28,946 nt of DNA from a virus (IMGVR_UViG_2617270968_000004); one strand, 5' to 3'; numbered from the stretch's first letter, positions 3,118-28,946 are shown. The notes: generated from the sequence alone by a model not told the origin. Numbers and translations: made by a program.

Positions 3118-3747
3118 ATGAACATACCACCCAGGGCGACTAGGACTGTTTTTTGTGTCGGTAGCGGTCCGTCACTCACTCGTGAGGACTGTGCTGCTAT
3201 AGAAAAAACTGGCTGTTCAATCATCGCGGTTAACAATTCCTGGCAGATGTTCGATGACATTTATGCCTTATACGCCGGTGATTTGTCATGGTGGAAGCAA
3301 TACGGATCCACCATACCGGGAGGGAGATTCCGCAAAGTGACAGCCAACCTGGCGGCGGCGAAATCATTTTCGTTGGAGTACAGGCGATATTGTGGACCGG
3401 CTGAAGGGGTTAATAGCGGCGCGCAGGCTATCAGTCTGGCGGCTGAATCAGGGGCTGAAGTAGTTGTATTAGTCGGCTATGACTGTTCTCTGCAAAACGG
3501 CCTTCATTGGCATGGAGCACACCCTCAAGCCCTACGGAATCCAACGCAGGTGTCTATTTCAAAATGGCAACAGCAGTTCCTGGATACCCGCAAAAAACAC
3601 GCAGATTTACATATTTTGAATGCAAGTAGGAGCAGTGCAATTCAATGTTTCCCAAGAATAAATTTAGAGGCAGTGATCGCGTTATTATCGTCGGCAGTGG
3701 CCCAAGCGCCGCAAACTTTGTTGCGCCGCGCGGAGTGCCGATTATAG
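3118..3747 (+). CDS. Hypothetical protein with GxGPS Rossmann-like motif (paralog 1)
   Basis: MNIPPRATRTVFCVGSGPSLT...IIAVNNSW; motif spacing mirrors the downstream paralog. The track ORF begins at 3085; the in-frame ATG at 3118 gives a size equal to paralog 2. Confidence 0.5.
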   Translation: MNIPPRATRTVFCVGSGPSLTREDCAAIEKTGCSIIAVNNSWQMFDDIYALYAGDLSWWKQYGSTIPGGRFRKVTANLAAAKSFSLEYRRYCGPAEGVNSGAQAISLAAESGAEVVVLVGYDCSLQNGLHWHGAHPQALRNPTQVSISKWQQQFLDTRKKHADLHILNASRSSAIQCFPRINLEAVIALLSSAVAQAPQTLLRRAECRL

Positions 3748-4271
3748 CGGTCAATGGGGCCATCGACTGGCTGAACCGCGCTTCTTATTTTTTCACACTT
3801 GATCCATCGCCAGACAATATGCGGCGCGTTGGTCGTGGCCGCCGTCGCCGTGGTGTTTGTTATTGCATGGCACTACCCGATGTTAAAGAACGTGAAGTCA
3901 GAGACGGCGTTCTGTGCTTCCGTCGTGTGGCTGAACGTGGCATGGAGCCAAAAAATACGAATTCTCCCGAGTGGTGGGCGTGGCGCTGGTCCGCACATTT
4001 CGGACTTTGCGAAGATGAGAATGAAATTGCCAGCGGCAATAGTGCATATGGCGCTCTGAACCTGGCTTTCCATATCGGATTCAAACATGTCGCCCTGGTG
4101 GGCGTTGACGCTACACAAGAACCACGCGTTCACTCCGGCGGCACGCCAAAAAATCTAAGTCACCTGCCTTTGTTATTCCAGTCTGCGCGTGAACAGATTG
4201 ACGTTGTTTCATGCGGGAGAATGGGAGGTATTCCGCAGATGACTCTTAAAGAATGGCTGAAGAATACATGA
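3645..4271 (+). CDS. Hypothetical protein with GxGPS Rossmann-like motif (paralog 2)
   Basis: [25 protein letters not shown]...IIAVNGA; AGGAG upstream; stop overlaps the next start (ATGA). Confidence 0.55.
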
Positions 4272-4945
4272 TGGCACCCACAATTTATCACCGTATCGAC
4301 GGTACCAAATACAGGAATGTCTGGGTTGTTGGTGATCTGCATGGTTGCTACACCAGACTGATGTCCGAACTCCATCGTGTGGATTTTGACCCGGCGCAGG
4401 ATTTACTGATATCGGTCGGCGACCTTATCGATCGCGGTACTGAAAATGTCGAATGTCTGGAACTATTGCAGATGCCCTGGTTCAGAGCGGTCATGGGTAA
4501 CCATGAGCGGCTGATGATTGATGCGTTAAGTCCAGATGGCAACGTGAATAACTGGCTAATGAATGGCGGACAATGGTTCTTCATGCTGGACACTGAGCAG
4601 GAAATATTAGCCTGGGCGCTGGTGGAGTTGGTAAGACGACTGCCCTATATCATTGAGTTGAACACCGGGCAAGAAACTATCGTTATAGCCCATGCCGACT
4701 ATCCGGATAATGAATACCAATTCGGTAAGGAGGTGCCGCTTTTCAACGTTGTCTGGGCGCGCGAGCGTATCAGTGATTCGATGGATGATATTGGTGGCGA
4801 AATTTCGGGCGCAGATCGTTTTATCTTTGGTCACACTCCGGTGAAAAGCCCGAAGACATTCTGGAATCAGCAGTATATCGACACTGGTGCCGTATTTTGC
4901 GGAAACCTGACATTGATGAAAGTGAAAGGTGATGGTGCAGCATGA
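4253..4945 (+). CDS. Lambda-type serine/threonine protein phosphatase (calcineurin-like metallophosphoesterase)
   Basis: [16 protein letters not shown] and GNHE motifs; alternative start ATG at 4268 overlaps the upstream stop. Confidence 0.8.
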
Positions 4946-5643
4946 AGATTGCTTTAGTTTTTCGCTCTGGTGGTGACTATAACGCTTCCGATGTGCAGTG
5001 GCTGGTTAATCAACTGCCAAAAGGCTATGAAATTATTTGCCTGACAGACCTGAAGCGTTTACATGTACCTGGCGTCAAAGTTGTCCCATTGATCAACCAG
5101 TGGCAAAAGTGCCGTGGCTGGTGGGCGAAAATAGAGTTGTTCCGACCGGATATAACAGATGATCTGTTCTATCTGGATTTGGACACAGTTATTGCCGGTG
5201 ATATACGCCCAATCCTTGAGAATCCACCAACCAGCTTCACCATGCTTAGGGATTTTTACCATCCACAATATCGTGGTAGCGGTGCCCTGTGGATACCAAA
5301 TAGTGTAAAAGCGCATATCTGGAGTGCATTCTGGCAAGATCCGGAAGGTTGGGTTGCTCGTTGTGTTACTACTGAATGCTGGGGTGAGCAGGGGTTTTTG
5401 CGGAAGGTTATGGGTGATGATACACCAGCATTTCAGGATCTGTATCCGGGATGGTTTGTAAGTTACAAGGCCGATGTTGTGGAACCTGGTTCGAAATATG
5501 CGAGCGCGCGTTACTCCAGGGGGAATGGGGCATTACCAAAAGACTGCCGAATAATCTTTTTCCACGGCAAACCGCGACCTCGCGAAGTGTCAGAGGATTG
5601 GCTTCCCCTTATCAGCTCGTTTTTTGAGCGAGAATCAGAATAA
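4942..5643 (+). CDS. Putative glycosyltransferase-like protein (DxD motif)
   Basis: 233 aa with YLDLDTVI (DxD-like) in an N-terminal Rossmann-like region; ATGA overlap with the phosphatase stop. Confidence 0.4.
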
Positions 5644-5944: not shown

Positions 5945-7207
5945 ATGAGCACTTCAGCACAAAACCAATCAATCGAAAATGTATCTATCCCTGATGTCCT
6001 GAATGCCGGTATCCCGGCCATTATCCAGAACATCCGGGCCGCGCAACGCCGCGTTAGTTGTGATGACCTCACAGCACGTTTTTTTGATAATGCGGTTCAG
6101 TCAGCGGAGATGCTTCACGCACAGCTTATTGATGTTTATAACGCAGAAGCTGATAGCCATAACTCCCTGGTAGATGCAGCTGAAAATATGCAGTTGGATC
6201 TCGGTCTGAAGGGTAAAGAAATTGAAGAGCTTCAGCTGCAAATTGAACATTTGAAACGCCAGCAACAGGACGCGATCGACGATGCGACGCATGACGCCAA
6301 CCAGCGTGCTGATAATGCCGAACGTATAAGCATTGAGCTGGAAACAAAACTCAATGAAGTGACCGCGATGGTTGAACTGCGGAACTCACAGATTTCAACG
6401 CTAAAATCTCAATATAAAGAGATCATGAAACTTGATCCTTTTAACCTTGAGAAACGCTATAACAAAGCCAAAAGTGAGCGACAGGAACTGCGTAAGCAGG
6501 TCGCCGACCTTAACCAACAGCTCAAAAAGACTATTAAAGATGCAAGTGAGGCGCGCGTGGCATTTGCTAATAAAAAAGCAGAGGTTACCGCGCTGGTTAA
6601 TGAGAATGCCAAATTTGCGACGCTCAAGAAGGAAATGTATGGCATTACTGAGCGACGTTTCCCTGCAAGCAAACTTCATCCGACGTTAGGGCAAATCTCC
6701 TTCTTCCCGCGCCTCCTGGCTTATGGGATCTCATCGCCTAAAGAGTTCAATAACGAGCGTCCTTATATCGTTTCTAAGCTGGACTTTGCTTATCAGTTCT
6801 GCTGCGACATGGGCTATGCCATTGATATCCGAATCAACGAATGGTTGATGCCAAACTTCCAGCCGTTGGCCATTTTCCGCGAGTTCCAGCCGGAAGGTTG
6901 GGTAGAGTTCTTCCATGAATTGATCTGTAAAGAGATGGAAAGCCGCCGCCCGGAACTGGTCCGTCGAGTTGAGTGGGCGCAAGAGGTTATGTTGGCAGAG
7001 GCAGAGCTGCCGTTCGAACCGGAATTTATTGATGATCTGGCAGCTAAAGGGCTGCATACCCTGTTTGATGTGGTTACCCGCCGTCATGAGCAGTTGGTTG
7101 TCGAATTGGGTTTAGAGGAAACAGCGGCAAGAAGACTTCTCGATGTTTGCTATGCACGTAGCGATGCATGGGAAAAAGAGAACGGCGGCACTATTTACGT
7201 TCGCTGA
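5945..7207 (+). CDS. Hypothetical protein with long N-terminal coiled-coil region
   Basis: 420 aa; residues about 70-230 are heptad-rich (E/K/Q/L), C-terminal globular part unrecognised. Confidence 0.6.
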   Translation: MSTSAQNQSIENVSIPDVLNAGIPAIIQNIRAAQRRVSCDDLTARFFDNAVQSAEMLHAQLIDVYNAEADSHNSLVDAAENMQLDLGLKGKEIEELQLQIEHLKRQQQDAIDDATHDANQRADNAERISIELETKLNEVTAMVELRNSQISTLKSQYKEIMKLDPFNLEKRYNKAKSERQELRKQVADLNQQLKKTIKDASEARVAFANKKAEVTALVNENAKFATLKKEMYGITERRFPASKLHPTLGQISFFPRLLAYGISSPKEFNNERPYIVSKLDFAYQFCCDMGYAIDIRINEWLMPNFQPLAIFREFQPEGWVEFFHELICKEMESRRPELVRRVEWAQEVMLAEAELPFEPEFIDDLAAKGLHTLFDVVTRRHEQLVVELGLEETAARRLLDVCYARSDAWEKENGGTIYVR

Positions 7208-8050: not shown

Positions 8051-11000
8051 CTATATTTTTCCGCCTACGCCTTTAAACTTCTCAATAAACGAGACGATTT
8101 TCTGGAAAACTGCCTGTTTTTTCGTTTTATATTGCGGATTTAACGGACTAAGTTTTGGTAATGTTTCGTTTAATTCTGTGCCATTTTCGGTGGCATATTC
8201 GCGTTTTAAAGACGTGCGAATATAGCGTTTTGCTGCATCTTCATTGAGATTTTCTTCTTTTATCAATGCTTCTGCTTCACGTTGCTGTTCGCGTTGAGCA
8301 AACGTAAAGAATGCGTCAATGATGCTGGCTTTGTCCGGTAAATCATCCAGGTTCGTTTGCTGAATAAAATCGACCACCAGGCCCTCTTTAGCACGGTTTC
8401 CCAGGCTTGAACGAATTAAGCGTTTGACCTCTTCGATCATTTCGCCCTTGCCTTTATTTTGTCTGTTGTGTTCGAAAATCAGTCCAAGGATATAATCCAG
8501 GTTTATTTCCTGAGACTTCAGCAAATCGACCTCAAAAACTACGTCATCCCAGTCAGTGGTTGATTTCTCTTTTTTCTCAGCTTCTTTCTCACGGCGCTGC
8601 CAGTCGCGAATATCGTTATAGGCAGAACGATAATCCTGAATCTTGCGATCAGCAGGGAGACGAATTGTTTGCAATTCAGCGAACTTTTCATCATCCACAT
8701 AATGTTCTGCTTTGAATTTTTCTACCGCAACAGGATCGCTAAGATCGATTTGTTGCAGGGCTTTTAGCGTGGCAAATTCATCATAGTTTTGCAGGATGTT
8801 CTCGGCACGCAGGTATTCGCCAAACAGTTTAACGAAGTCTTTCTTCTCTTTTTCACTTTCAATACTGGTAGGGTCAGGGAACCGTTGTTCCAGTTCTGAA
8901 ACTACTGTCATGAAGCCGCGTTTAGCTTCACCTGTAGCAGCATCAGTAAAGCCTTCCATATACTCTGTATAACTCTTTTCTAACACCACATTTTTGGTGT
9001 TTTTGTCACCAAACAGCGTTATGGCATCAATAGTTGAGCGTTCCAGATCCCGGAAAGTGACGATATTACCGAAGGTTTTAGTGGCGTCATAAATGCGGTT
9101 GGTGCGGGAAAATGCCTGCATCAGGCCGTGATAACGTAAGTTTTTATCGACGAATAGCGTGTTCAATGTTGGAGCATCGAAGCCGGTTAAGAACATCCCC
9201 ACGACAATTAGCAGATCGATATCCTGATTTTTAACCCGCTGGGCTAAATCACGATAGTAGTTCTGAAAACCGTTACTGTCGGTGCTAAAGTTAGTTTTAA
9301 AATGGCTGTTATATTCACGAATTGCAGCGTCCAGAAACTCTTTAGCACTGCTGTCCATTGCGCTGGTATCAAAAGTTTCATCGGAAATTTCACCAATGGC
9401 ATTTTGTTCTTCATTGGCGGCAAAGGAGAAGATTGTCGCAATACGCAGCGGTTTATAGGTAGCCGATTTATTAGCGGCTTCTTCTTGTAACCGTTTAAAC
9501 GTCGCATAATAGGCTTTCGCGGCATCCACGCTGCTCACTGCCAACATAGCATTAAAACCTTTTGAGCCAGGGAAGGTACGGTGGGTTTTCTGGCGGAAAT
9601 TATTCAGAATATATTGCGTGATTTCCTGAATACGCATGGGATGAAGAAACGCCTGCTGATTTTCAGCCGCACTCAGTTTTTTCTCGTCAGTTTCTGTCTC
9701 TAAAGACTTAAACTGTGGCCGCACATCGTTGTAGTCCACCTTGAATTTGAGCACTTTTTCGTCACGAATCGCATCGGTAATTACATACGAATGCAATTCA
9801 CGACCAAATACGCTGGCGGTTGTTTCTGAGCCTAAGGCGTTTTCCGGGAAAATAGGGGTGCCGGTAAAACCAAACTGATAATAGCGTTTGAATTTCTTCT
9901 TCAGGTTTTTCTGCGCTTCTCCAAACTGGCTGCGGTGGCATTCATCAAATATAAACACCACTTGCTGATTATATACAGGCAGATCGCTTTCTGCTTTCAT
10001 CAGGTTATTGAGTTTCTGAATAGTAGTGACGATAATTTTGTTATCGTCCTTATCCAGATTTCGTTTAAGGCCTGCGGTATTTTCCGAGCCGTTGACGCTG
10101 TCTGGCGAAAAACGCTGATATTCCTTCATGGTCTGGTAATCGAGGTCTTTCCTGTCGACCACAAAGAAGACTTTATCAATAAAGTCCAGCTCTGTTGCCA
10201 GACGCGCGGCTTTAAAGCTGGTGAGGGTTTTACCAGAACCGGTAGTGTGCCAGATATACCCACCGCTTTCCGGTTTTGACCAGTTCTTCGCTGTAAAGGA
10301 ACTCTTAATTTTCCACAGAATGCGCTCGGTGGCGGCAATCTGGTACGGTCGCATTACCAGTAGTGTCTGACTGCTGTCAAAAACGCTGTAGTTCACCAGA
10401 ACATTAAGCAGAGTATGTTTCTGGAAAAAGGTGGCGGTAAAGTCTTTGAGGTCTTTAATCAGCGTATTGTCTGATTTCGCCCAGTTCATGGTGAAGTCAA
10501 AACTGTTTTTATCGCGCTTTGTCGTGTTGGCAAAATAACGGGTATCAGTGCCGTTGGAAATGACGAACAGCTGCAGATACTTAAACAGGGAATTTTCGCT
10601 GTTAAAACTCTCTTTACTGTAACGATGTATCTGGTTGAAAGCCTCACGAATCGCCACGCCGCGTTTTTTCAGTTCGATTTGTACCAGCGGTAAGCCATTA
10701 ACCAGGATAGTTACGTCATAACGGTTAGCGTGAGAACCCGCCTGTTCAAACTGCTGGATAATCTGCACCTTATTGCGCATGAGATTCTTTTTATCTATCA
10801 AATAGATGTTCTCAAGACGCTCGTCATCAAAAATAAAGTCGCAAATATAGTCGATATGGATTTTACGGGTCTTATCCAGAATGCCATCGCTCGGGTTATC
10901 CAGATACTGCTCCGTGAAACGCCGCCACTCGCTGTCATTAAACACCACACCATTGAGGTTCTGAAGCTGTTCCCGAACATTGGCCAGCATCGCCGACTGT

Positions 11001-11167
11001 GATTTTACGGATATAAATTCATAGCCCTGATTCCGTAGGTCCTGTATCAGTTCGCGTTCCAGGTCCGATTCGCTCTGGTAGCTGTCGCCTGTTGGCTCAG
11101 CTTTGATGTACTTATCAAGAACGATAAAGTTATTGGATTCAGCAATGGTGTGTGTCTGATGAGTCAT
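8051..11167 (-). CDS. hsdR: Type I restriction enzyme R subunit (HsdR), type IC EcoR124-like
   Basis: 1038 aa; N-terminal PD-ExK nuclease motif ([17 protein letters not shown]), helicase motifs TGSGKT and DECH; size and N-terminus match the EcoR124 family as I recall it. Confidence 0.92.
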
Positions 11168-11288
11168 AGCGCATCCTTTGTGCCGTCTGGCAAGGGCCGG
11201 AAGGGGGGTAATGGTGACTTCCGGCGCGTAAAAAATAGTCTATATACTGACCGGGTGTTAAGGTGGTCCGATCGGTAGCAATGATCAA

Positions 11289-12503
11289 TTAATTACTGAC
11301 AGTTTCAGGTTTCGGGAAACTGAACAGTAAATCACGATAGTACTCGTATTGTTTCTGGCGCAACTCGATTTCACGCGGAAGACCTTCGGTGATGGAGTTA
11401 GTCAGTGTGTCGAATTTGTCGAGTATTTCGACAATTCGTTGTTGTTCATTGATGTTAGGAACCGGAATTTTAAATGAAAATAATTTTTTACTGTCAATAG
11501 AAGCTACGGACCCTCCTGTCTTTTTCGCTGCTCGCAGAATATCACTCCCCCTAGACCCAATCATATGATAAATATATTTAACCAAGATGTTTTCATGAGG
11601 AATGACTGCTTTCATATCTTGATTGAGCGTAGCAGGTACTTTTATTAATGCACTTGGTAATACTTTATCCAATATGCTTGAGCGAACAACGATTGCAATC
11701 GAGTTTGCTGGAATCAGTTTTGTTGACGATTGTAGAACAGCCTCCTCAGTTATATAGTCTTCCGAAGAGTCTACAAGTGTTCGGCCCATATCTTTCGGGG
11801 AAATCCATGGAATGCTTCCATTTTCCCAAAATTCAATTTTATTTTTTGATGGTGTCCCTCCCCCATACCATTTTCCGATCTCTCCCAAAGTCTTCCACTC
11901 AACCTCACCCTCTTTAAAACTCAACAACTGGTCGCGATAGTAGTTGTACTGTTTTTTACGCATGTTAAGCTCAGCGGTAAGCTCAGCGGTAAGTGCAGTA
12001 AATTTATCCAGAATCCGAACGATTTCAGACTGGATGGCAAGGGATTTTTCCGGATTATCCGGGCAGGGGATTGGGATTTTTTTTTGAGAATAATTACTAA
12101 TCCATTGGCGTTTATGGTCTCCCTCTGCGAATTCACTTGGTAATGTATTGAGCCAATAGTAAACATATTTCAGTAAGGTTTTATTATCATCACATGATGT
12201 AACCATTTTCATGGCCGATGATTTTGCCTTAAAGTCAAAATCCACCCATTTATTAGCGGTGGTGAAATCATCAAAAATTATTACAGGTGCCTTTGATGCC
12301 TGATAAATACCATGAGTCTCATTTGTGTATCCAAGAATAAATGTTTTTCCGGCAGTAAGAACCGGTATGGTATATGTGTCGTGATAATCTTTTGCTTTTA
12401 CCAAATACTTTGTTGGCTGTTCATATTTGGTTATTTCCCCCAATGGCAACCACTCAACTTCAACCCCATCCAGCAATTTTTCCAGATAACTCATCTCGCT
12501 CAT
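11289..12503 (-). CDS. hsdS: Type I restriction-modification specificity subunit (HsdS)
   Basis: 404 aa with two target-recognition domains separated by conserved regions ...[26 protein letters not shown] and ...[19 protein letters not shown]; 4-bp overlap with hsdM. Confidence 0.9.
11967..11990 (-). repeat. Tandem 12-bp repeat (2 copies) encoding TAEL-TAEL in the HsdS central conserved region
   Basis: Plus-strand AAGCTCAGCGGT x2; in type IC systems the copy number of this repeat sets the spacer length of the recognition site. Confidence 0.8.
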
Positions 12504-14062
12504 TTCTGCACCTCGCAGCCTTCAATTTCAGCCACAATCGCATCAATATCTTTGCGCAACTGGTCGATTTTGCTGACCGTGGTTTTCAGCTCAGCATTCA
12601 GCTCAGCAATATCGATAATTTCGCGGTTATCTTTCGCTTCCACATAGCTGCTCACCGACAGGTTATAGTCATTAGCAACAACGGTCTCAAACGCGACAGA
12701 TTTCGCCAGATGAGCAACATCTTCCTTGCTGGCAAATACCTGCATAATCTGTTCGATATGGGCATCGGTCAGGATATTGTTGTTAGTCTCTTTTTTGAAC
12801 AGTTCGCTGGCGTCAATAAACTGAACGTTGGTATCCGTTTTATGTTTGGACAGAACCAGAATGTTTACTGCAATGGTGGTGCCAAAGAACAGGTTCGGTG
12901 CCAGTGAAATTACGGTTTCGACATAGTTATTGTCAATCAGATACTGACGGATTTTCTGCTCCGCGCCGCCACGGTAAAAAATACCCGGGAAGCAAACAAT
13001 CGCAGCACGACCTTTGGCAGAAAGATAGTTCAGCGCATGTAATACAAACGCAAAGTCAGCTTTGGATTTGGGGGCCAGAACGCCAGCCGGGGCAAAACGT
13101 TCATCGTTAATCAGCGTCGGGTCATCGCTGCCAATCCATTTCACCGAATACGGCGGGTTAGAAACGATGGCATCAAACGGTTTTTCATCTCTGAAGTGTG
13201 GCTCAGTCAGTGTATTACCCAGCTTGATATCAAACTTGTCGTAGTTGATGTTGTGCAAAAACATGTTCATACGTGCCAGGTTATAGGTTGTATGGTTGAT
13301 TTCCTGACCAAAAAAGCCTTCTTCGATGATATGGTCATCAAACTGTTTTTTAGCCTGCAACAACAGCGAACCGGATCCTGCTGCCGGGTCGTAGATTTTG
13401 TTAACGTGGGTCTGCCCGTGCATAGCCAGTTGTGCAATCAGCTTAGAGACGTGTTGCGGTGTAAAGAACTCGCCGCCTGACTTACCGGCATTCGCCGCAT
13501 AGTTAGAAATCAGGAACTCATAGGCGTCACCGAACAGGTCAATCTGATGTTCGTTGAAGTCACCAAGTTTTAACCCTTCAACCCCTTTCAGAACCGCAGC
13601 CAGGCGGGCATTTTTATCTTTAACGGTGTTACCCAGGCGGTTACTGGTAGTATCGAAATCAGCAAACAAACCTTTGATGTCAGCTTCTGAAGGATAACCG
13701 TAAGCAGAACTTTCGATAGCAACGAAGATGCTGTTTAAATCTGCATTCAGTCTGTCATTAGTATTTGCTTTCGCAGCTACGTTGCAGAAAAGCTGACTGG
13801 GGTAGATGAAGTAGCCTTTAGTTTTGATGGCATCGTCTTTAATGTCATCAGTAATTACGCTGTCATCCAGTTTCGCATAACAGATACTGTCATCACCGGC
13901 TTCAATATAACTGGAAAAATTTTCGCTGATAAAACGGTAGAAAAGTGCGCCCAGAACGTATTGCTTAAAATCCCATCCATCGACCGAACCCCTGACATCG
14001 TTAGCAATTTGCCAGATTTGACGATGAAGCTCTGCACGTTGTTGAATACTTGTCATTTTCAT
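12500..14062 (-). CDS. hsdM: Type I restriction-modification N6-adenine DNA methyltransferase subunit (HsdM)
   Basis: 520 aa; AdoMet-binding [10 protein letters not shown] and catalytic NPPY motifs. Confidence 0.92.
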
Positions 14063-18589: not shown

Positions 18590-18811
18590 ATGGCTACTAT
18601 CCCTATCCCAACTCATCCTGAATTTATCTGGCGCTTTTACTCCTGCCAAAAACGTCACTATCACTTCGTTATTGCACCGACAGAAGATGAGGCCCGCTCT
18701 CAGCTTCCTGACGCCCCATGTATTTTCTCTGCCCGTTTTTCCACTGATTCACGCAATTCTCTCAGTTACTGGTGCCTCCCTGTTAACGCTTCTGCTCAGG
18801 AGGGACTATGA
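18590..18811 (+). CDS. icd: Icd-like small protein (73 aa) translationally coupled to the antirepressor gene
   Basis: ATG 18590 preceded by AAGGAGG; 73 aa, the P1 Icd length as I recall it; stop overlaps the ant start (ATGA). Confidence 0.5.
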   Translation: MATIPIPTHPEFIWRFYSCQKRHYHFVIAPTEDEARSQLPDAPCIFSARFSTDSRNSLSYWCLPVNASAQEGL

Positions 18812-19926
18812 GAACGTCATTAGTCACCCGTGAAGAGATGATCGAGGCAATTGAACAGCACACTGCCTGTATCAGTACCAGGGATATACCAGGCGTTATT
18901 GCCAACTACTTCATGATCACCAAACAACTTTACCGGAGAAAGGACAAGAACGCGGTTCACCGTATCCTGTTGTCTGATATCCGCGAATACCTGCTCGAAC
19001 AGGGTCATCTGAATTACGCAACCGCCGCAGCCGAAGCACGCAAGGAGGCACACAGAATGAAAGCAACTAACGTTAAATCAGAAAAAATTCATGCACCTTC
19101 AGTTCAAGAATCGGAGCTGGTGGTTGTTCAGAATCAGTCTGATGAAATTCCCGTTCTGGAATGGCAGGGAGTGCGTGTAGTGACAACCGAGACTCTTGCT
19201 AGAGGGTATGGGACAGAAACAATCCGTATTCGCCAAAATCATCATGAGAACAAAGTACGCTTTGTTGAAGGGAAGCACTTTTTCAAAGTTGAAGGAGAAT
19301 CATTGCGCGAGTTGAAGCACAGAGTAGCTTTAAACTACTCTGTAAAAATTGCTCGCAATGTTCGCTCACTCACCCTCTGGACAGAACGCGGCGCAGCCCG
19401 CCACGCTAAAATGCTCGAAACCGATCAGGCATGGGCATTCTTTGAAAAACTGGAAGACAGCTACTTCCGACAAAAAGAACAGCAACCGATCGCAATCCCC
19501 CAGACGCTTCCTGAAGCCCTACGCCTGGCTGCCGAACTGGCTGAACAAAAGCAACTTCTGGAACAGAAAGCCCACCAGCTAAATCAGCAGCTGGTGGCCG
19601 CCGCTCCTAAAGTCGATTTTGCCGACCGGGTATCAGTAGCTAAAGGGATCCTGATTGGGAATTTTGCAAAGGTTGTTGGACTTAAACAAAACGCGCTGTT
19701 TGTCTGGTTACGGGAGAACGGCATCCTGATAGCGTCCGGTGGACGTAAAAATGTGCCGTTCCAGCAGTACATCAACGCGGGGTATTTCACGGTGAAAGAA
19801 GTGGTGCTGGATGATGAAGATGGCTACCAGATACGGTTGACGCCTCAATTAACGGGTAAAGGCCAGCAGTGGTTGACGCGTAAACTGCTCGATGCTGGCT
19901 TGTTAAAACCGGTGGCGGCTGAATAA
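18808..19926 (+). CDS. ant: Antirepressor Ant1-like (ORF6N plus KilAC/Ant domains), with in-frame internal Ant2-like start at 19057
   Basis: 372 aa; central VLEWQGVRVVTTETLARGYG... and C-terminal VDFADRVSVAKG...FVWLRENGIL antirepressor-type regions; internal in-frame ATG 19057 has its own AAGGAGG, giving a 290-aa product. Confidence 0.6.
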   Translation: MRTSLVTREEMIEAIEQHTACISTRDIPGVIANYFMITKQLYRRKDKNAVHRILLSDIREYLLEQGHLNYATAAAEARKEAHRMKATNVKSEKIHAPSVQESELVVVQNQSDEIPVLEWQGVRVVTTETLARGYGTETIRIRQNHHENKVRFVEGKHFFKVEGESLRELKHRVALNYSVKIARNVRSLTLWTERGAARHAKMLETDQAWAFFEKLEDSYFRQKEQQPIAIPQTLPEALRLAAELAEQKQLLEQKAHQLNQQLVAAAPKVDFADRVSVAKGILIGNFAKVVGLKQNALFVWLRENGILIASGGRKNVPFQQYINAGYFTVKEVVLDDEDGYQIRLTPQLTGKGQQWLTRKLLDAGLLKPVAAE

Positions 19927-19958: not shown

Positions 19959-20810
19959 TTATTGCGCGCTTTCGGGGTTGTCGTTTACTGGCTGCCCCTT
20001 CTTGGTTTTACGGCTGCGCGTAACTGATGCGGCTGACTTAACCTTTTTCTCTTCGCGAGTGATGGCAATTTGTTTTTTTACATTTTCAATATCTGCCAGG
20101 CGATATATTTTTGCTTGCGGCCAGCGGTCGCAGATGATCGGTTCTATGGAGTCATAAAGGCTAAATTTTGCTTTTTCGAATTCACCGTTGATGATAATTC
20201 CATCACGGAGAGTTTCATCGCAGATAAACACGCCACACAGTGGCACATGGTAACTAACTGATTTACCATCATTGTAGTTAGGGCTACTGGAAATGTAGTG
20301 GACGCGCAGCATTGTTTCGCTAAAGCCGTGTACGCGCATACGGAATTTTTCATCCTCCGGGTACTGCTTCATTAGCTCTTTTGTTGCTTCCAGGTTCTCT
20401 ATGTATTTCGCACTGTGCTCATTGATCCCCGCGCTTTTTTGGATGCGAATGTCCTTATCAATCAGATGAATAATGCGGCCAGCGGTCATGTTGACGCTGT
20501 TCACAGCTTCTGTCTGATAAGTTGTAACCTTACGCACACCGCGAAGGATGTTAGGCACTGGATATAAAATAGTCTTTGGGATATTGAGGTCTGGGTACTG
20601 TTCCAGTTCCCGCGCCATTAAAGTCCATTTATCAATTTCAGCCTGAATGCTGTCAGTTTCTTTGAACGGTAGAACGACAACCGGGCGTACAGGACGACCG
20701 TCGCTGGCTGTATCAACGTGTTGGGCGCGTGCAACAGCTTTTTTTAGAAAGAGATCCCTGAAGCTGACGAACTCCTGGTACAGTTGTTCGCCGTAGACAT
20801 AATTTATCAT
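19959..20810 (-). CDS. c1: C1 repressor of lysis (P1-type primary repressor)
   Basis: 283 aa, the P1 C1 length as I recall it; its cognate operators are scattered through the window and coi lies immediately upstream. Confidence 0.8.
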   Translation of the reverse strand: MINYVYGEQLYQEFVSFRDLFLKKAVARAQHVDTASDGRPVRPVVVLPFKETDSIQAEIDKWTLMARELEQYPDLNIPKTILYPVPNILRGVRKVTTYQTEAVNSVNMTAGRIIHLIDKDIRIQKSAGINEHSAKYIENLEATKELMKQYPEDEKFRMRVHGFSETMLRVHYISSSPNYNDGKSVSYHVPLCGVFICDETLRDGIIINGEFEKAKFSLYDSIEPIICDRWPQAKIYRLADIENVKKQIAITREEKKVKSAASVTRSRKTKKGQPVNDNPESAQ

Positions 20811-24316: not shown

Positions 24317-24341
24317 GCCGCCGCTGGTGGCTTTTCTTTTT
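24317..24341 (+). terminator. Terminator-like hairpin plus U-run between ref and mat
   Basis: GCCGCCGCTGGTGGC hairpin followed by TTTTCTTTTT, ending about 12 bp before the mat SD. Confidence 0.4.
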
Positions 24342-24353
24342 GTAGGGGGAGCT

Positions 24354-24998
24354 ATGGATAAGAAAATATGCGTTGTTTCGATGAACGTCGGCAAACCGGC
24401 GTCAATGACTGCTGCATGGATCAACAACGAGCTGATAATGGCTGAGCGGACCAGATACCCTGAACGCCGCCGCGACATGGAACTCCAGCTGCTGCGCGAA
24501 TTGCGAGAAAAAGAGGAAAAGGGTTTTATCGTGCTGGTGGAAGAGGAAAACAGCTTTATTACTGGTCGAGTTGGCCAGCGTGTAAGGTTGCGCGATCCCT
24601 TCATGAACGGCAGGCCGGTACTAATTGAAGCAATGCAGATTTACAAGGAGTTGGAACGCCAGAAAGCGATCAAGTTACCGCGCAAGGAATCCGGCAAATA
24701 CATCCTCCACCAAAGCATCTTCGATTCCGAACACGATAAAAAAGGCGATGAGTTTTTCAACATCAACTGGAGCGAAATAACGACAGAGCATGTTCTGACG
24801 TTGTTATGCTGCTTCGCAACAGAATACAACAACGTGGTAAGCGCAGACTACATCAGGACAATGACAGACACCGTTACTAAACAAGACAACGAATATTCAC
24901 CATATGAGCCATTTGTAAATATGATAAAAGCATTTTATCGGATGGAGCTCACTAAAGTTCCTCAAGGTAAATTAACAGGTAAGGATAACATCTTTTAA
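24354..24998 (+). CDS. mat: Mat-like protein (maturation control position in P1)
   Basis: ORF with AGGGGGAG SD before ATG 24354 (track ORF 24327..24998); positioned after ref as in P1. Confidence 0.5.
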   Translation: MDKKICVVSMNVGKPASMTAAWINNELIMAERTRYPERRRDMELQLLRELREKEEKGFIVLVEEENSFITGRVGQRVRLRDPFMNGRPVLIEAMQIYKELERQKAIKLPRKESGKYILHQSIFDSEHDKKGDEFFNINWSEITTEHVLTLLCCFATEYNNVVSADYIRTMTDTVTKQDNEYSPYEPFVNMIKAFYRMELTKVPQGKLTGKDNIF

Positions 24999-25051
24999 GC
25001 ACAGTAATGAGGTGCTTAGATGTTCATATCAATATCCTAACTCTCTGCATC

Positions 25052-25741
25052 TCATAAATCTGATAGCCACTTACTATCTATGGACTCAATCTCCGTCAGC
25101 GGAATTGATGGGAAAAAATATCCCTGAGCGCCCCATAGTCCTATCCCTTTTGATAACTTATGACAATCAATGTTTTCGACGCCTTCAGCGATGATATTCG
25201 GACATAACTTTTTTAAATTGCTAATAATGACATCAAAATGAGGCTTAATCATATGCTCTTGAAAAAATGACTTATCAAGTTTTATTGCATGATATTTATT
25301 TTTAATTAATGCTTTCATGGTGGCGTTACCACTTCCAAAATCATCAAGCCAAACATTATCTGTCAAAGTCAGTAGAAAGGATATGATGTAATCCTCATCG
25401 CTTAAATCAGGATAGTTTTCTGATATTTCAATCGCTATAAATTTATTGTTTATTAGTAGTTCTTGAATTTGTTTATTGCCATATATATATAAACAGGTAT
25501 CATAATCTACATTGATAGAGCATAATATATTATGGCGTTCAAAAAAATACTTATATTTGATTATTGTGTTAAGTTGAGATTTTAGCAAGTTAATCTTCAT
25601 CTTGCTTGTAAACATACCCAATACTTTCTGAGTAGAAAGAATAGCCCCCTCGTTGGAATAAAATCTGCTCAACACTTCCACTGCTATCAACTTGTTAGTG
25701 CTTGTGGAAATGATTGGTTCTACTATGTAGATAACTTCCAT
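25052..25741 (-). CDS. EAL-domain protein (putative c-di-GMP phosphodiesterase), stand-alone
   Basis: 229 aa with EAL-domain signatures EVL (E retained), DDFGSG, KLDKSF, AEGVEN and QGYFF; SD GAGGG upstream; visibly AT-rich gene. Confidence 0.7.
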   Translation of the reverse strand: MEVIYIVEPIISTSTNKLIAVEVLSRFYSNEGAILSTQKVLGMFTSKMKINLLKSQLNTIIKYKYFFERHNILCSINVDYDTCLYIYGNKQIQELLINNKFIAIEISENYPDLSDEDYIISFLLTLTDNVWLDDFGSGNATMKALIKNKYHAIKLDKSFFQEHMIKPHFDVIISNLKKLCPNIIAEGVENIDCHKLSKGIGLWGAQGYFFPSIPLTEIESIDSKWLSDL

Positions 25742-25964
25742 GCTCCCACCCTCTATTTTTAAATTGGTTGGCTTTAGCAGATAAAGTGCCCTTTATATTT
25801 ACAGGGGTTACACACTATGTCAATTTATTTATCTGTAGTGAAATTGATAAAAATTCAATAATAAAAAAACAGCAACTGTGACACAAATCAATATTTTTAT
25901 TTTTTGCACAACTTCTTGATTTCAGTGCTGCTGTATCTCTATTCTTGTTCAAAGCCTCTTTAGA

Positions 25965-26699
25965 ATGGTGGTAGCTATGTCAGGAGTCTGTTACTTCATC
26001 CTAATAAAAAAACCGATAATTTTTCAATTTCTTAAGGATTTCTTAATATTAAATTATGGTGATGTGCTGTTGCTTAAACATTCTGAACGCGAATTCTTAC
26101 AAACCTATTCAGATAAATATATCGAATTCGAACTTAATGATAGTGCTGTAAGAAACTATTTATCTTGTCACAATCACCAAGGGAAGCAACTTCTGGATAA
26201 ATGCCCACATTTGCTAAAAAAGTCTTTTGCTTATCCTGATTTATTAATCAGGATGATCGATAATATAAGTGACCAGAATCATATACATCCTGATTTTAAG
26301 GATGCTTTAACTTTTTCATTACTTTCAATTTTTAGTGATGTTGACAACCTTAGAGCTTTTCTTACGTCTGGCATGCCTACTTTCTCAGGGAAAGTACGCA
26401 GCATATTTCTTTCAGATGTATCTAAACATTGGAAACTAAGAGATTTAACTGATTATCTATACATGAGTGAGAGTTTAATAAAGAAAAAACTATTATTAGA
26501 AAACACCTCCTTCAGTAAGTTATTACTTGATACACGGATGGCTTTTGCTATTAAATTACTAAAGCAAAACCGCCCCCTCAAACAAGTATCAGAAAGTTGT
26601 GGTTTTAGTAGTATATCGTACTTTGTGTACCTATTTAGGCAGTATTATAATTGTACACCATGTGAATATGCAAAACATCAGTTATCATCTGGGAAATAA
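25965..26699 (+). CDS. AraC/XylS-family transcriptional regulator
   Basis: 244 aa; C-terminal helix-turn-helix region ...LKQVSESCGFSSISYFVYLFRQYYNCTPCEY; AT-rich, divergent from the EAL gene. Confidence 0.7.
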   Translation: MVVAMSGVCYFILIKKPIIFQFLKDFLILNYGDVLLLKHSEREFLQTYSDKYIEFELNDSAVRNYLSCHNHQGKQLLDKCPHLLKKSFAYPDLLIRMIDNISDQNHIHPDFKDALTFSLLSIFSDVDNLRAFLTSGMPTFSGKVRSIFLSDVSKHWKLRDLTDYLYMSESLIKKKLLLENTSFSKLLLDTRMAFAIKLLKQNRPLKQVSESCGFSSISYFVYLFRQYYNCTPCEYAKHQLSSGK

Positions 26700-26737
26700 G
26701 ATGCATTTATCTCCCAGATAATATTGTAATATTAAAC

Positions 26738-26986
26738 TCAGTCAGCATTTAGTAGCAGAGCATTATCTATGATGATCTGCTCCCATTCTTCGAATGCCCG
26801 GTCGCGGACGCCCTGGGGAACGCTGTTTGTTTTGAAATCGACGACCGTCCGCCATTTTCCGTCAGGACGGTACATGCGCAGAGCTTTACTTCCCCCTTCC
26901 CTGCGCACCTCAACGTTATGCTTGTCAGCAAACTCTTGTAATGCTCGTAGCGTCCCATGCTTTACTGTGTAGTATCGCTTTTTCAA
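26738..26986 (-). CDS. Hypothetical protein (82 aa)
   Basis: ORF whose start overlaps the stop of the upstream 146-aa ORF (ATGA). Confidence 0.45.
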   Translation of the reverse strand: MKKRYYTVKHGTLRALQEFADKHNVEVRREGGSKALRMYRPDGKWRTVVDFKTNSVPQGVRDRAFEEWEQIIIDNALLLNAD

Positions 26987-27621: not shown

Positions 27622-27674
27622 GCCGGACGCCTCCTGAAGCCCAAATACCTCACCAGCTGCGAATTTTGGTGCGT

Positions 27675-28008
27675 TGAAGTGGCACACTGAATTTGGCCAC
27701 CTGAACAGAGGTGATATGCTCACCTCAGAACAACACAGGTGCTCCAATGAAAAAAAGAAATTTTAGCGCAGAGTTTAAACGCGAATCCGCTCAACTGGTT
27801 GTTGACCAGAAATACACGGTGGCAGATGCCGCCAAAGCTATGGATGTTGGCCTTTCCACAATGACAAGATGGGTCAAACAACTGCGTGATGAGCGTCAGG
27901 GAAAAACACAAAAAGCCTCTCCGATAACACCAGAACAAATCGAAATACGTAAGCTGAGGAAAAAGCTACAACGCATTGAAATGGAGAATGAAATATTAAA
28001 AAAGGCTA
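27675..28008 (+). mobile_element. IS911 (IS3 family) left end, interrupted by IS30
   Basis: Terminus TGAAGTGGCACACTGAATTTGGCCACC from 27675; orfA follows and is cut after ...ENEILKKAT. Confidence 0.8.
27747..28008 (+). pseudogene. insN: IS911 OrfA (InsN-like), truncated by IS30 insertion
   Basis: [52 protein letters not shown]... then diverges into IS30 end sequence. Confidence 0.8.
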
Positions 28009-28946
28009 CGGTAGATTCAATTGGTCAACGCAACAGTTATGTGAAAACATGGGGTTGCGGAGTTTTTTTGAATGAGACGAACATTTACAGCAGAGGAAAA
28101 AGCCTCTGTTTTTGAACTATGGAAGAACGGAACTGGCTTCAGTGAAATAGCGAATATCCTGGGTTCAAAACCCGATCTTCACTATGTTTAAGGGATACTG
28201 GCGGCATAAAACCCCCATGAGCGTAAGCGGGCTGTAGCTCACCTGACACTGTCTGAGCGCGAGGAGATACGAGCTGGTTTGTCAGCCAAAATGAGCATTC
28301 GTGCGATAGCTACTGCGCTGAATCGCAGTCCTTCGACGATCTCACGTGAAGTTCAGCGTAATCGGGGCAGCCGCTATTACAAAGCTGTTGATGCTAATAA
28401 CCGAGCCAACAGAATGGCGAAAAGGCCAAAACCGTGCTTACTGGATCAAAATTTACCATTGCGAAAGCTTGTTCTGGAAAAGCTGGAGATGAAATGGTCT
28501 CCAGAGCAAATATCAGGATGGTTAAGGCGAACAAAACCCTTTGTCATGCAGCTCCACCGATTTTGAGAACGACAGCGACTTCCGTCCCAGCCGTGCCAGG
28601 TGCTGCCTCAGATTCAGGTTATGCCGCTCAATGCGACGGTCGCATAGCCTTCGCCATGGCAGGCGTCATACCCGCAAAGGCGAAAGAGGTACGATTAACA
28701 TAGTGAACGGAACACCAATTCACGAACGTTCCCGAAATATCGATAACAGACGCTCTCTGGGGCATTGGGAGGGCGATTTAGTCTCAGGTACAAAAAACTC
28801 TCATATAGCCACACTTGTAGACCGAAAATCACGTTATACGATCATCCTTAGACTCAGGGGCAAAGATTCTGTCTCAGTAAATCAGGCTCTTACCGACAAA
28901 TTCCTGAGTTTACCGTCAGAACTCAGAAAATCACTGACATGGGACA
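28009..28946 (+). mobile_element. IS30 copy (partial; runs off window end)
   Basis: IS30 end GTAGATTCAATTGGTCAACGCAACAG..., then transposase coding sequence [34 protein letters not shown]... Confidence 0.8.
28071..28946 (+). pseudogene. insI: IS30 transposase (InsI-like) with frame disruptions
   Basis: Frame from ATG 28071 stops at about 28188; homology resumes in other frames (LRDTGGIK, HERKRAVAHLTLSEREEIRAGLSAKMSIRAIA..., later GERGTINIVNGTPIHERSRNIDNRRSLGHWEGDLVSG...), implying several indels and a divergent stretch around 28550..28650. Confidence 0.65.

Follow-up and report, generated by a model that had tools for sequence, protein, structure and literature searches.

EAL phosphodiesterases are generally regarded as specific for c-di-GMP, and prophage-encoded YdeO-like regulators, PatE and PsrA/PsrB, are known in E. 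coli O157. Phage-borne c-di-GMP enzymes have been described as rare (PMC10333796). Two EAL proteins, YdiV (RflP) and STM1697, neither bind nor cleave c-di-GMP and act as anti-FlhD4C2 factors (PMC5622320, PMC10333796), and a degenerate loop 6 can silence EAL domains, about half of which are said to be down-regulated in this way (PMC10333796). In P1-like phage-plasmids, the slot between mat and lxc has been published as variable region 'RD-1' (Venturini et al. 2019, PMC6906374) and as 'region 1 (res-mod)' (Wang et al. 2022, PMC9603915), a hot spot with many alternative fillings (PMC6906374, PMC9603915). One of these fillings, in pJIE250-3, was listed as '2 orfs including putative transcriptional regulator' (PMC6906374); neither study names an EAL domain or analyses the pair (PMC6906374, PMC9603915). 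The slot and the cassette described below have been noted previously, without a function, as RD-1 of pJIE250-3, and our literature searches found no paper on the function of the EAL-AraC pair and no biochemical data on the EAL protein.

The window analysed here is a 28,946-nucleotide stretch of viral DNA (IMGVR_UViG_2617270968_000004). Homology to reference P1 (blastn, NC_005856), with 96% identity up to position 24863 (P1 3336), stops at that point and restarts at 26742 (P1 9754), leaving 1878 bp (24864–26741) that stand in place of the 6.4 kb res-mod region of P1. The left breakpoint falls inside the last ~135 bp of the maturation control gene mat (24327–24998, plus strand; phrog_1837, called Mat in OP279344 and NC_050153), so the C-terminus of Mat, encoded by 24864–24998, was swapped along with the cassette and differs from that of P1. 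The right breakpoint is just downstream of the stop codon of lxc (26738–26986, minus strand), a P1 backbone gene for a modulator of the C1 repressor. The replaced segment, an RD-1 allele, comprises the alternative mat 3' end, a gene for a stand-alone EAL-domain protein and predicted c-di-GMP phosphodiesterase (25052–25741, minus strand, 229 aa), a divergent intergenic control region (25742–25976), an intact AraC/XylS-family regulator gene (25965–26699, plus strand, 244 aa) and a hairpin (26683–26723). The cassette is flanked by the P1 genes ref, mat, lxc and ulx, and the two cassette genes are transcribed divergently across a gap of 223–235 bp. In reference P1 the corresponding interval is filled exactly by res and mod, encoding the EcoP1I Type III restriction-modification system, plus an IS5 in the reference strain. 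GC content is 0.323 in the replaced segment, 0.475 in the left flank, 0.501 in the right flank and 0.462 in the whole window, and drops to 0.27–0.35 across the pair. The initial annotation had proposed a divergent pair of 229- and 244-aa genes after mat, in the slot where P1 carries res-mod and more AT-rich than its surroundings, and each element of this description is borne out by the ORF calls, the strands, the P1 alignment and the GC profile (32.3% versus 47.5–50%).

The cassette is widespread among P1-like elements. The full cassette was found in 127 of the 562 PLSDB plasmids matching any part of the query, or ~23% of P1-like PLSDB plasmids; the other records mostly match only the 59-bp lxc flank, and because only that flank matched we count them as other P1-like elements. 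By bit score, pJIE250-3 (NZ_MN510445) is the second-best plasmid match in PLSDB (3437 versus 3440), its cassette being 99.3% identical to that of the window. Among complete E. coli genomes 126 of 5426 (~2.3%) carry the cassette, nearly always on plasmids, as do 3 of 19 matching phage records, and the cluster of the EAL protein at 90% identity contains 1040 sequences. The only well-covered copy assigned to a chromosome, in strain ST2747, also has a P1-like context and was rejected as a chromosomal instance. Some copies carry IS5 or IS903 insertions. The reference elements P1, P7, RCS47 and SJ46 all lack the cassette; the EAL-AraC pair, whose composition was described at the outset as consistent with horizontal acquisition, is accordingly a frequent alternative allele and not P1 backbone.

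The EAL protein is predicted to be a catalytically competent enzyme. Its residues 8–210 align to positions 18–233 of the 236 in the Pfam EAL profile (PF00563), scoring 66.9 bits (cut-off 31.3), and an AF2 model (pLDDT 93.2) forms a complete EAL barrel. Catalytic positions were assessed against the EAL domain of YahA/PdeL (sequence rebuilt from the search alignment) and K-12 PdeH. Active YahA has the same residue at all 12 canonical positions (E22, L24, R26, N77, E105, E108, D133, D134, K154, E186, E189 and Q206), and PdeH at all but R26. The initial annotation had described the catalytic signatures as largely intact and named substituted active-site residues as the finding that would count against it; on proper alignment no such substitution was found. 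Apart from R26, these residues show no change in 17 family members, SfaY/PdeY among them, whose identity falls as low as 23%. When 1.84 billion cluster representatives were searched exhaustively, only 12 clusters reached E<=1e-30. Among EAL-only relatives at >=30% identity, most retain 10 of 10 core residues, and the remainder differ solely at E189 (D, Q or A), save one (P0088) that keeps 6 of 10. Loop 6 reads DFGSGNAT, compared with the consensus DFG(T/A)GYSS and with DFGTGYAT and DFGTGMAN in active YahA and active PdeH, respectively; the departure from the consensus speaks against activity, a concern tempered by the deviation that active PdeH shows as well. The best NCBIfam match is the PdeH model (NF008617 / PRK11596; 96.7 bits, below the cut-off of 190). 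Identity with PdeU1-3 of uropathogenic E. coli (PMC5635171) was considered and rejected, as the motifs of those proteins (EVLIR, ELTE, DDFGTGYAT, KLDKGF) differ from the ones found here. We conclude that the EAL protein is probably an active c-di-GMP phosphodiesterase.

The regulator matches the Pfam families HTH_18 (45.2 against a cut-off of 33.6) and HTH_AraC (36.9 against 26.6). Its best NCBIfam model is YdeO (NF007407), at 149.2 bits over the full length and below the cut-off of 348, and it is 34% identical to K-12 YdeO over the full length. From M5 onwards it is collinear with YdeO (MSGVCYF... and MSLVCSV..., respectively) and with all of its relatives, which makes M5 at 25977 the likelier start and gives a protein of 240 aa. 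Sequence matches in the PDB are GadX, Rns, CsvR and ToxT; in Foldseek the DNA-binding domain of GadX aligns with a TM score of 0.87–0.90, and the nearest structures to the whole protein are Rns, CsvR and ToxT, the N-domain of the model being only moderately confident (pLDDT 76.7). Lambdoid phages and another P1-like phage encode YdeO-like relatives at 28–36% identity (phrog_1450).

Alignment of seven copies of the intergenic region revealed a block on its AraC side (25870–25945) that is conserved in all four lineages of the pair described below, the EAL-proximal half being poorly conserved between lineages. The block contains TGTGA-N6-TCAAT at 25877–25892, which resembles a CRP half-site, an inverted repeat AAATCAA (25885–25891) / TTGATTT (25916–25922), and a weak sigma-70-like pair composed of a -35 element TTGATT (25916–25921) and a -10 element TATTCT (25940–25945). 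We infer that this pair, near the AraC gene, is a promoter; the consensus promoter scan did not report it and yielded sites not above the chance number, and a repeat search of the intergenic region found nothing convincing besides the conserved block. The hairpin, which separates AraC from the convergent lxc gene at the cassette's right-hand end, has a 17-bp stem and a fold energy of -22.7 kcal/mol (z -5.35 on the minus strand and -2.74 on the plus strand) at a terminator-like site, and is probably a bidirectional terminator or insulator. There are no C1 operators in the cassette, compared with 10 elsewhere in the window, and Rfam gave no riboswitch or other RNA match within it.

We posit, with confidence somewhat better than even, that the cassette is a lysogenic-conversion module in which an active EAL-only phosphodiesterase lowers host c-di-GMP alongside a YdeO/Rns-class activator. 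According to this model, the two-gene segment would have been acquired horizontally into RD-1, where it forms an alternative allele in place of the Type III restriction-modification genes. The compact EAL-only enzyme would hydrolyse c-di-GMP to pGpG, and the c-di-GMP pool of the lysogen would fall, the expected direction of change being towards more motility and less curli/cellulose biofilm. The YdeO/Rns-class activator probably autoregulates, and may switch on AT-rich, probably H-NS-silenced divergent promoters, possibly including that of the EAL gene; it may also reach host genes. The C1 lytic switch would not govern expression of the cassette.

A different role for the EAL protein is suggested by its nearest solved relatives. 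By sequence these are STM1697 (phmmer against the PDB, E 8e-29) and YdiV (E 1e-19), and by fold YdiV (Foldseek TM 0.88, rmsd 1.9) and STM1697 (TM 0.84/0.91), with active YahA at ~0.77. In a neighbour-joining tree built without bootstrap, the family is sister to YdiV plus STM1697, PdeH being more basal, and one GenBank record labels the protein ydiV. The EAL-only protein could therefore be mainly or additionally a protein-binding factor that, like YdiV/RflP and STM1697, binds FlhD and shuts down flagellar genes, a proposal we regard as unlikely, the evidence favouring an enzyme. The FlhD-contact set of STM1697 comprises 11 residues: V115, L116, L136, V147, F160, K167, L172, L173, K175, H176 and Y180 (PMC5622320). 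Two of the 11 are identical in the EAL protein (F160 and K167, equivalent to F159 and K166), four are conservatively replaced (L136, V147, L172 and L173), and five are changed or ambiguous in the alignment. However, F160 is the general EAL residue of the 'KxDxSF' motif and so no particular mark of FlhD binding; of the polar contacts, K175 is replaced by S and H176 by N; Y180 is replaced by L; and F181 of YdiV has no conserved counterpart (a gap in one alignment, H168 in another). YdiV and STM1697 are substituted at 4–6 of the 12 catalytic positions, with E105, D133 and E186 lost in both and D134 and K154 lost in YdiV as well, whereas the EAL protein and all its relatives keep these residues, a pattern not easily accounted for unless catalysis is under selection. 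Of the catalytically intact proteins encountered in this analysis, the EAL family stands nearest to YdiV and STM1697.

A second alternative is that the cassette is largely neutral or decaying cargo that hitch-hikes in a P1 hot spot and persists by linkage, contributing nothing to the biology of the phage-plasmid. The character of RD-1 as a site with many fillings (PMC6906374, PMC9603915) fits such a view, as do the lesions seen among carriers. In the commonest P1 allele, which is 98.5–98.8% identical to the window, the regulator gene is short of one G at window position 26465; RefSeq annotates it as frameshifted, and its product would end before the first helix-turn-helix. An exact 76-mer across this lesion is present in 85 complete genomes and a near match in 107; the 3' part of the AraC gene occurs in about 136 genomes, so that at least 85 of these carriers are frameshifted, and the window-type intact sequence is found in at most 29. 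Independently, the GenBank P1 isolate OP279344 has an in-frame 21-bp deletion (26473–26493) that takes SLIKKKL out of the first recognition helix. The AraC gene is thus a pseudogene in most P1 carriers, and the window, in which both genes are intact, represents a minority, ancestral-looking state. Damage to the EAL gene is seen in phage Ro157c2YLVW, where the gene is split, and the IS5 and IS903 insertions add to the picture of decay. In the three P1 copies compared (the window, NZ_CP010243 and OP279344), however, the EAL ORF is intact and differs by at most one amino acid (R69C). With the regulator frameshifted in most P1 carriers while the EAL gene stays intact, the regulator is evidently either unnecessary or a handicap in many P1 hosts, an argument against EAL expression strictly requiring AraC.

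The distribution and divergence of the pair weigh further against neutrality. The divergent pair occurs in four lineages, two of P1 type and two of IncF type. The first P1-type lineage is that of the window, and the second is a group at 88–91% nucleotide identity found in Ro157c2YLVW, ST2747 and O111:H2. One IncF-type lineage (L005, L024) lies beside RelB/ParE near repA; the other (L020–23, L026) is IS-flanked and resides on E. coli and E. albertii plasmids of the IncFIA/FIB type. Between P1 and IncF lineages the EAL proteins are 65–69% identical and the regulators 68–83%. Ratios of dN/dS between lineages are 0.05–0.17 for the EAL gene and 0.05–0.19 for the AraC gene (0.05–0.2 overall) at dS>1, indicating that both genes are under purifying selection and have been kept together past synonymous saturation. 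Given these ratios, the intact EAL ORF, the size of the 1040-sequence cluster at 90% identity and the retention of the pair on unrelated replicons, we consider neutral carriage decidedly unlikely. A donor species was not found in a scan of 185,579 species genomes, in which the best chromosomal relatives, in Yersinia, Serratia, Pantoea and Enterobacter, reach only 24–32% identity and have no AraC relative within 4 kb.

Some copies and relatives of the two genes lie near fimbrial genes. The L020–L023 pair is ~1.8 kb from a chaperone-usher operon, relatives of the EAL protein at 46–50% identity follow a pap-like operon, as SfaY/PdeY follows S-fimbrial operons, and on IncFII plasmids K88-type fimbrial genes have AraC relatives (58% identity) as neighbours. 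The pair as a regulatory module of a fimbrial operon was considered and rejected, there being an IS3-family element between the L020–L023 pair and the chaperone-usher operon, which is found without the pair elsewhere. We retain these fimbrial contexts as a weak hint.

The roles of the two genes could also be reversed, with the AraC protein as the main effector, a prophage-borne YdeO/Rns-type activator rewiring host acid-resistance, adhesin or virulence genes, and the EAL protein as its local target or partner. The full-length similarity to YdeO (34%), the closeness to GadX, Rns, CsvR and ToxT in structure, the phage-borne relatives, the prophage regulators PatE and PsrA/PsrB and the K88-type neighbours of the 58% relatives are consistent with this, as is the greater conservation of AraC than of EAL between the P1 and IncF lineages (83% versus 67%). 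We nonetheless find it very improbable that the regulator is the principal effector, as its gene is a pseudogene in most P1 carriers, and the IS3-family insertion that splits the L020–L023 pair from the chaperone-usher operon means that their linkage may be accidental.

An anti-defence function in which the EAL enzyme degrades CBASS-type cyclic-dinucleotide signals is extremely improbable: the surroundings are of a defence and anti-defence kind (res-mod in P1, the anti-restriction genes ulx/darB next door) and the stand-alone EAL protein 6ifq was termed a 'versatile' cyclic-dinucleotide phosphodiesterase by its depositors, but the same pair is found on non-phage IncF plasmids, the EAL gene is accompanied by an AraC regulator of its own, the cassette lacks any C1 operator or phage promoter signal, and neither protein matched the PADLOC models, a library of defence systems rather than anti-defence genes.

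The lysogenic-conversion reading, in which the cassette lowers host c-di-GMP, is of interest because P1-like phage-plasmids, common in E. coli, are vehicles for resistance genes, and in about one fifth to one quarter of them the cassette takes the place of a restriction system. Provided that the enzyme is active, lysogeny would alter c-di-GMP-controlled motility, curli/cellulose biofilm and possibly colonisation. A more speculative and, in our estimation, improbable extension is that the EAL protein represents an extant intermediate linking PdeH-type enzymes with YdiV/STM1697, one that on a YdiV-like backbone with an intact active site both hydrolyses c-di-GMP and binds FlhD or another transcription factor. 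Were this so, the phage-plasmid would directly reprogramme flagellar expression and motility of the lysogen, for example against flagellotropic phages or host immunity. The EAL family may also help to explain the loss of catalysis in YdiV and STM1697, and the natural frameshift and deletion alleles of the AraC gene offer ready genetic controls for the link between AraC and EAL. Two features stand out as most appealing: the YdiV-like scaffold with its intact active site, and these natural AraC knock-outs.

Compared with known systems, the cassette is real, common and of an ordinary accessory-cargo kind, combining an EAL-only phosphodiesterase with an AraC virulence-type regulator on a mobile element. 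It shares with RD-1 or region 1 of P1 the same mat-lxc interval, the low-GC character and the hot-spot role, whereas the EcoP1I res-mod genes that occupy this interval in P1 are unrelated to the EAL-AraC pair. The regulator resembles the subgroup of YdeO, GadX, Rns, CsvR and ToxT, whose genes are AT-rich and often on mobile elements, but at 34% identity it falls below the YdeO equivalog cut-off (149 versus 348). With SfaY/PdeY, a distant member of the same protein alignment (P0027) encoded at the end of S-fimbrial operons in uropathogenic E. coli, the EAL protein has in common a horizontally transferred, EAL-only form with an intact active site, encoded beside adhesin or regulator genes; SfaY/PdeY is, however, only 23–24% identical, has SfaX and not an AraC protein as its partner, and is not phage-borne. 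PdeH is likewise EAL-only and of similar size, keeps the metal-binding and catalytic residues and has a non-consensus loop 6, but is 24–25% identical in its K-12 form and is a chromosomal core gene without an AraC partner, whereas the window gene is AT-rich cargo of a mobile element. Finally, YdiV/RflP and STM1697 resemble the EAL protein in being compact (~230 aa) and EAL-only and in carrying a GNATM/GNSTM motif after DDFG, but have lost catalytic residues that the window protein retains in full.

The AT-rich segment that diverges from reference P1 takes in not only the EAL–AraC cassette but also the final ~45 codons of mat (window 24864–24998), and because these codons lie within it the C-terminus of Mat is unlike that of reference P1. 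This exchange of the mat end looks like allele replacement via recombination inside mat, rather than insertion. The cassette itself is mosaic in the O111:H2 plasmid NZ_CP077553.1, where the EAL gene is close to that of the window (95% amino acid identity) while the AraC gene is that of the other P1 lineage (99% to the ST2747 copy). This indicates that the cassette has recombined internally.

The AraC gene is intact in the window copy, but the same ~30 bp of it has been struck by two independent lesions in other P1 carriers (comparison loci L030 and L001). The first is a 1-bp deletion at window 26465 that frameshifts AraC, an exact 76-mer match to which was found in 85 complete E. coli genomes, and the second an in-frame 21-bp deletion (window 26473–26493) in OP279344 with loss of the first HTH recognition helix. 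The latter record, OP279344.1, goes by the name 'Escherichia phage P1 isolate del res del mod' in GenBank but carries the EAL–AraC cassette between mat and lxc (3373–5251) rather than a clean deletion, with both genes labelled as hypothetical proteins. Salmonella phage SJ1 (OQ595196.1, 5004–5693) encodes the same EAL protein, with 99.6% identity to that of the window, and has IS1 and Tn21 mer genes in place of the AraC gene. The label of the SJ1 protein, 'ydiV, putative anti-FlhC(2)FlhD(4) factor', is probably an annotation transfer error, given that the catalytic residues are intact. The EAL gene of phage vB_EcoM-Ro157c2YLVW (NC_050153.1, 1639–2324) is annotated at 199 aa only and its tblastn match is split into two pieces, so the gene is probably disrupted.

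P1 homology, here the 5' end of darB, ends at window 27674, and next come an IS911/IS3-family orfA-like ORF (27711–28115) and an IS30-like transposase fragment (28279–28566). Since IS ORFs take over where the homology stops (27674–28946), darB appears to have been truncated through IS insertions.

The window element lacks Type III res-mod and encodes a complete Type I restriction-modification system elsewhere (8051–14062, minus strand), comprising hsdR (8051–11167), hsdS (11289–12503) and hsdM (12500–14062), all on that strand. It thereby resembles pSvP1, described as being without Type III res-mod but with a different restriction-modification system. As reported for some P1-like plasmids, such as RCS47 and pTZ20_1P, it also carries an extra antirepressor gene with ORF6N and ANT/KilAC domains (18808–19926, plus strand), upstream of c1 (19959–20810, minus strand). 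More distant EAL-only relatives (46–50% identity; L007 at 6001–6711, and L008–L010) follow a pap-like chaperone-usher operon and adjoin genes for a SPATE autotransporter and hlyCA-like genes, a layout that echoes the position of SfaY/PdeY at the ends of fimbrial operons.
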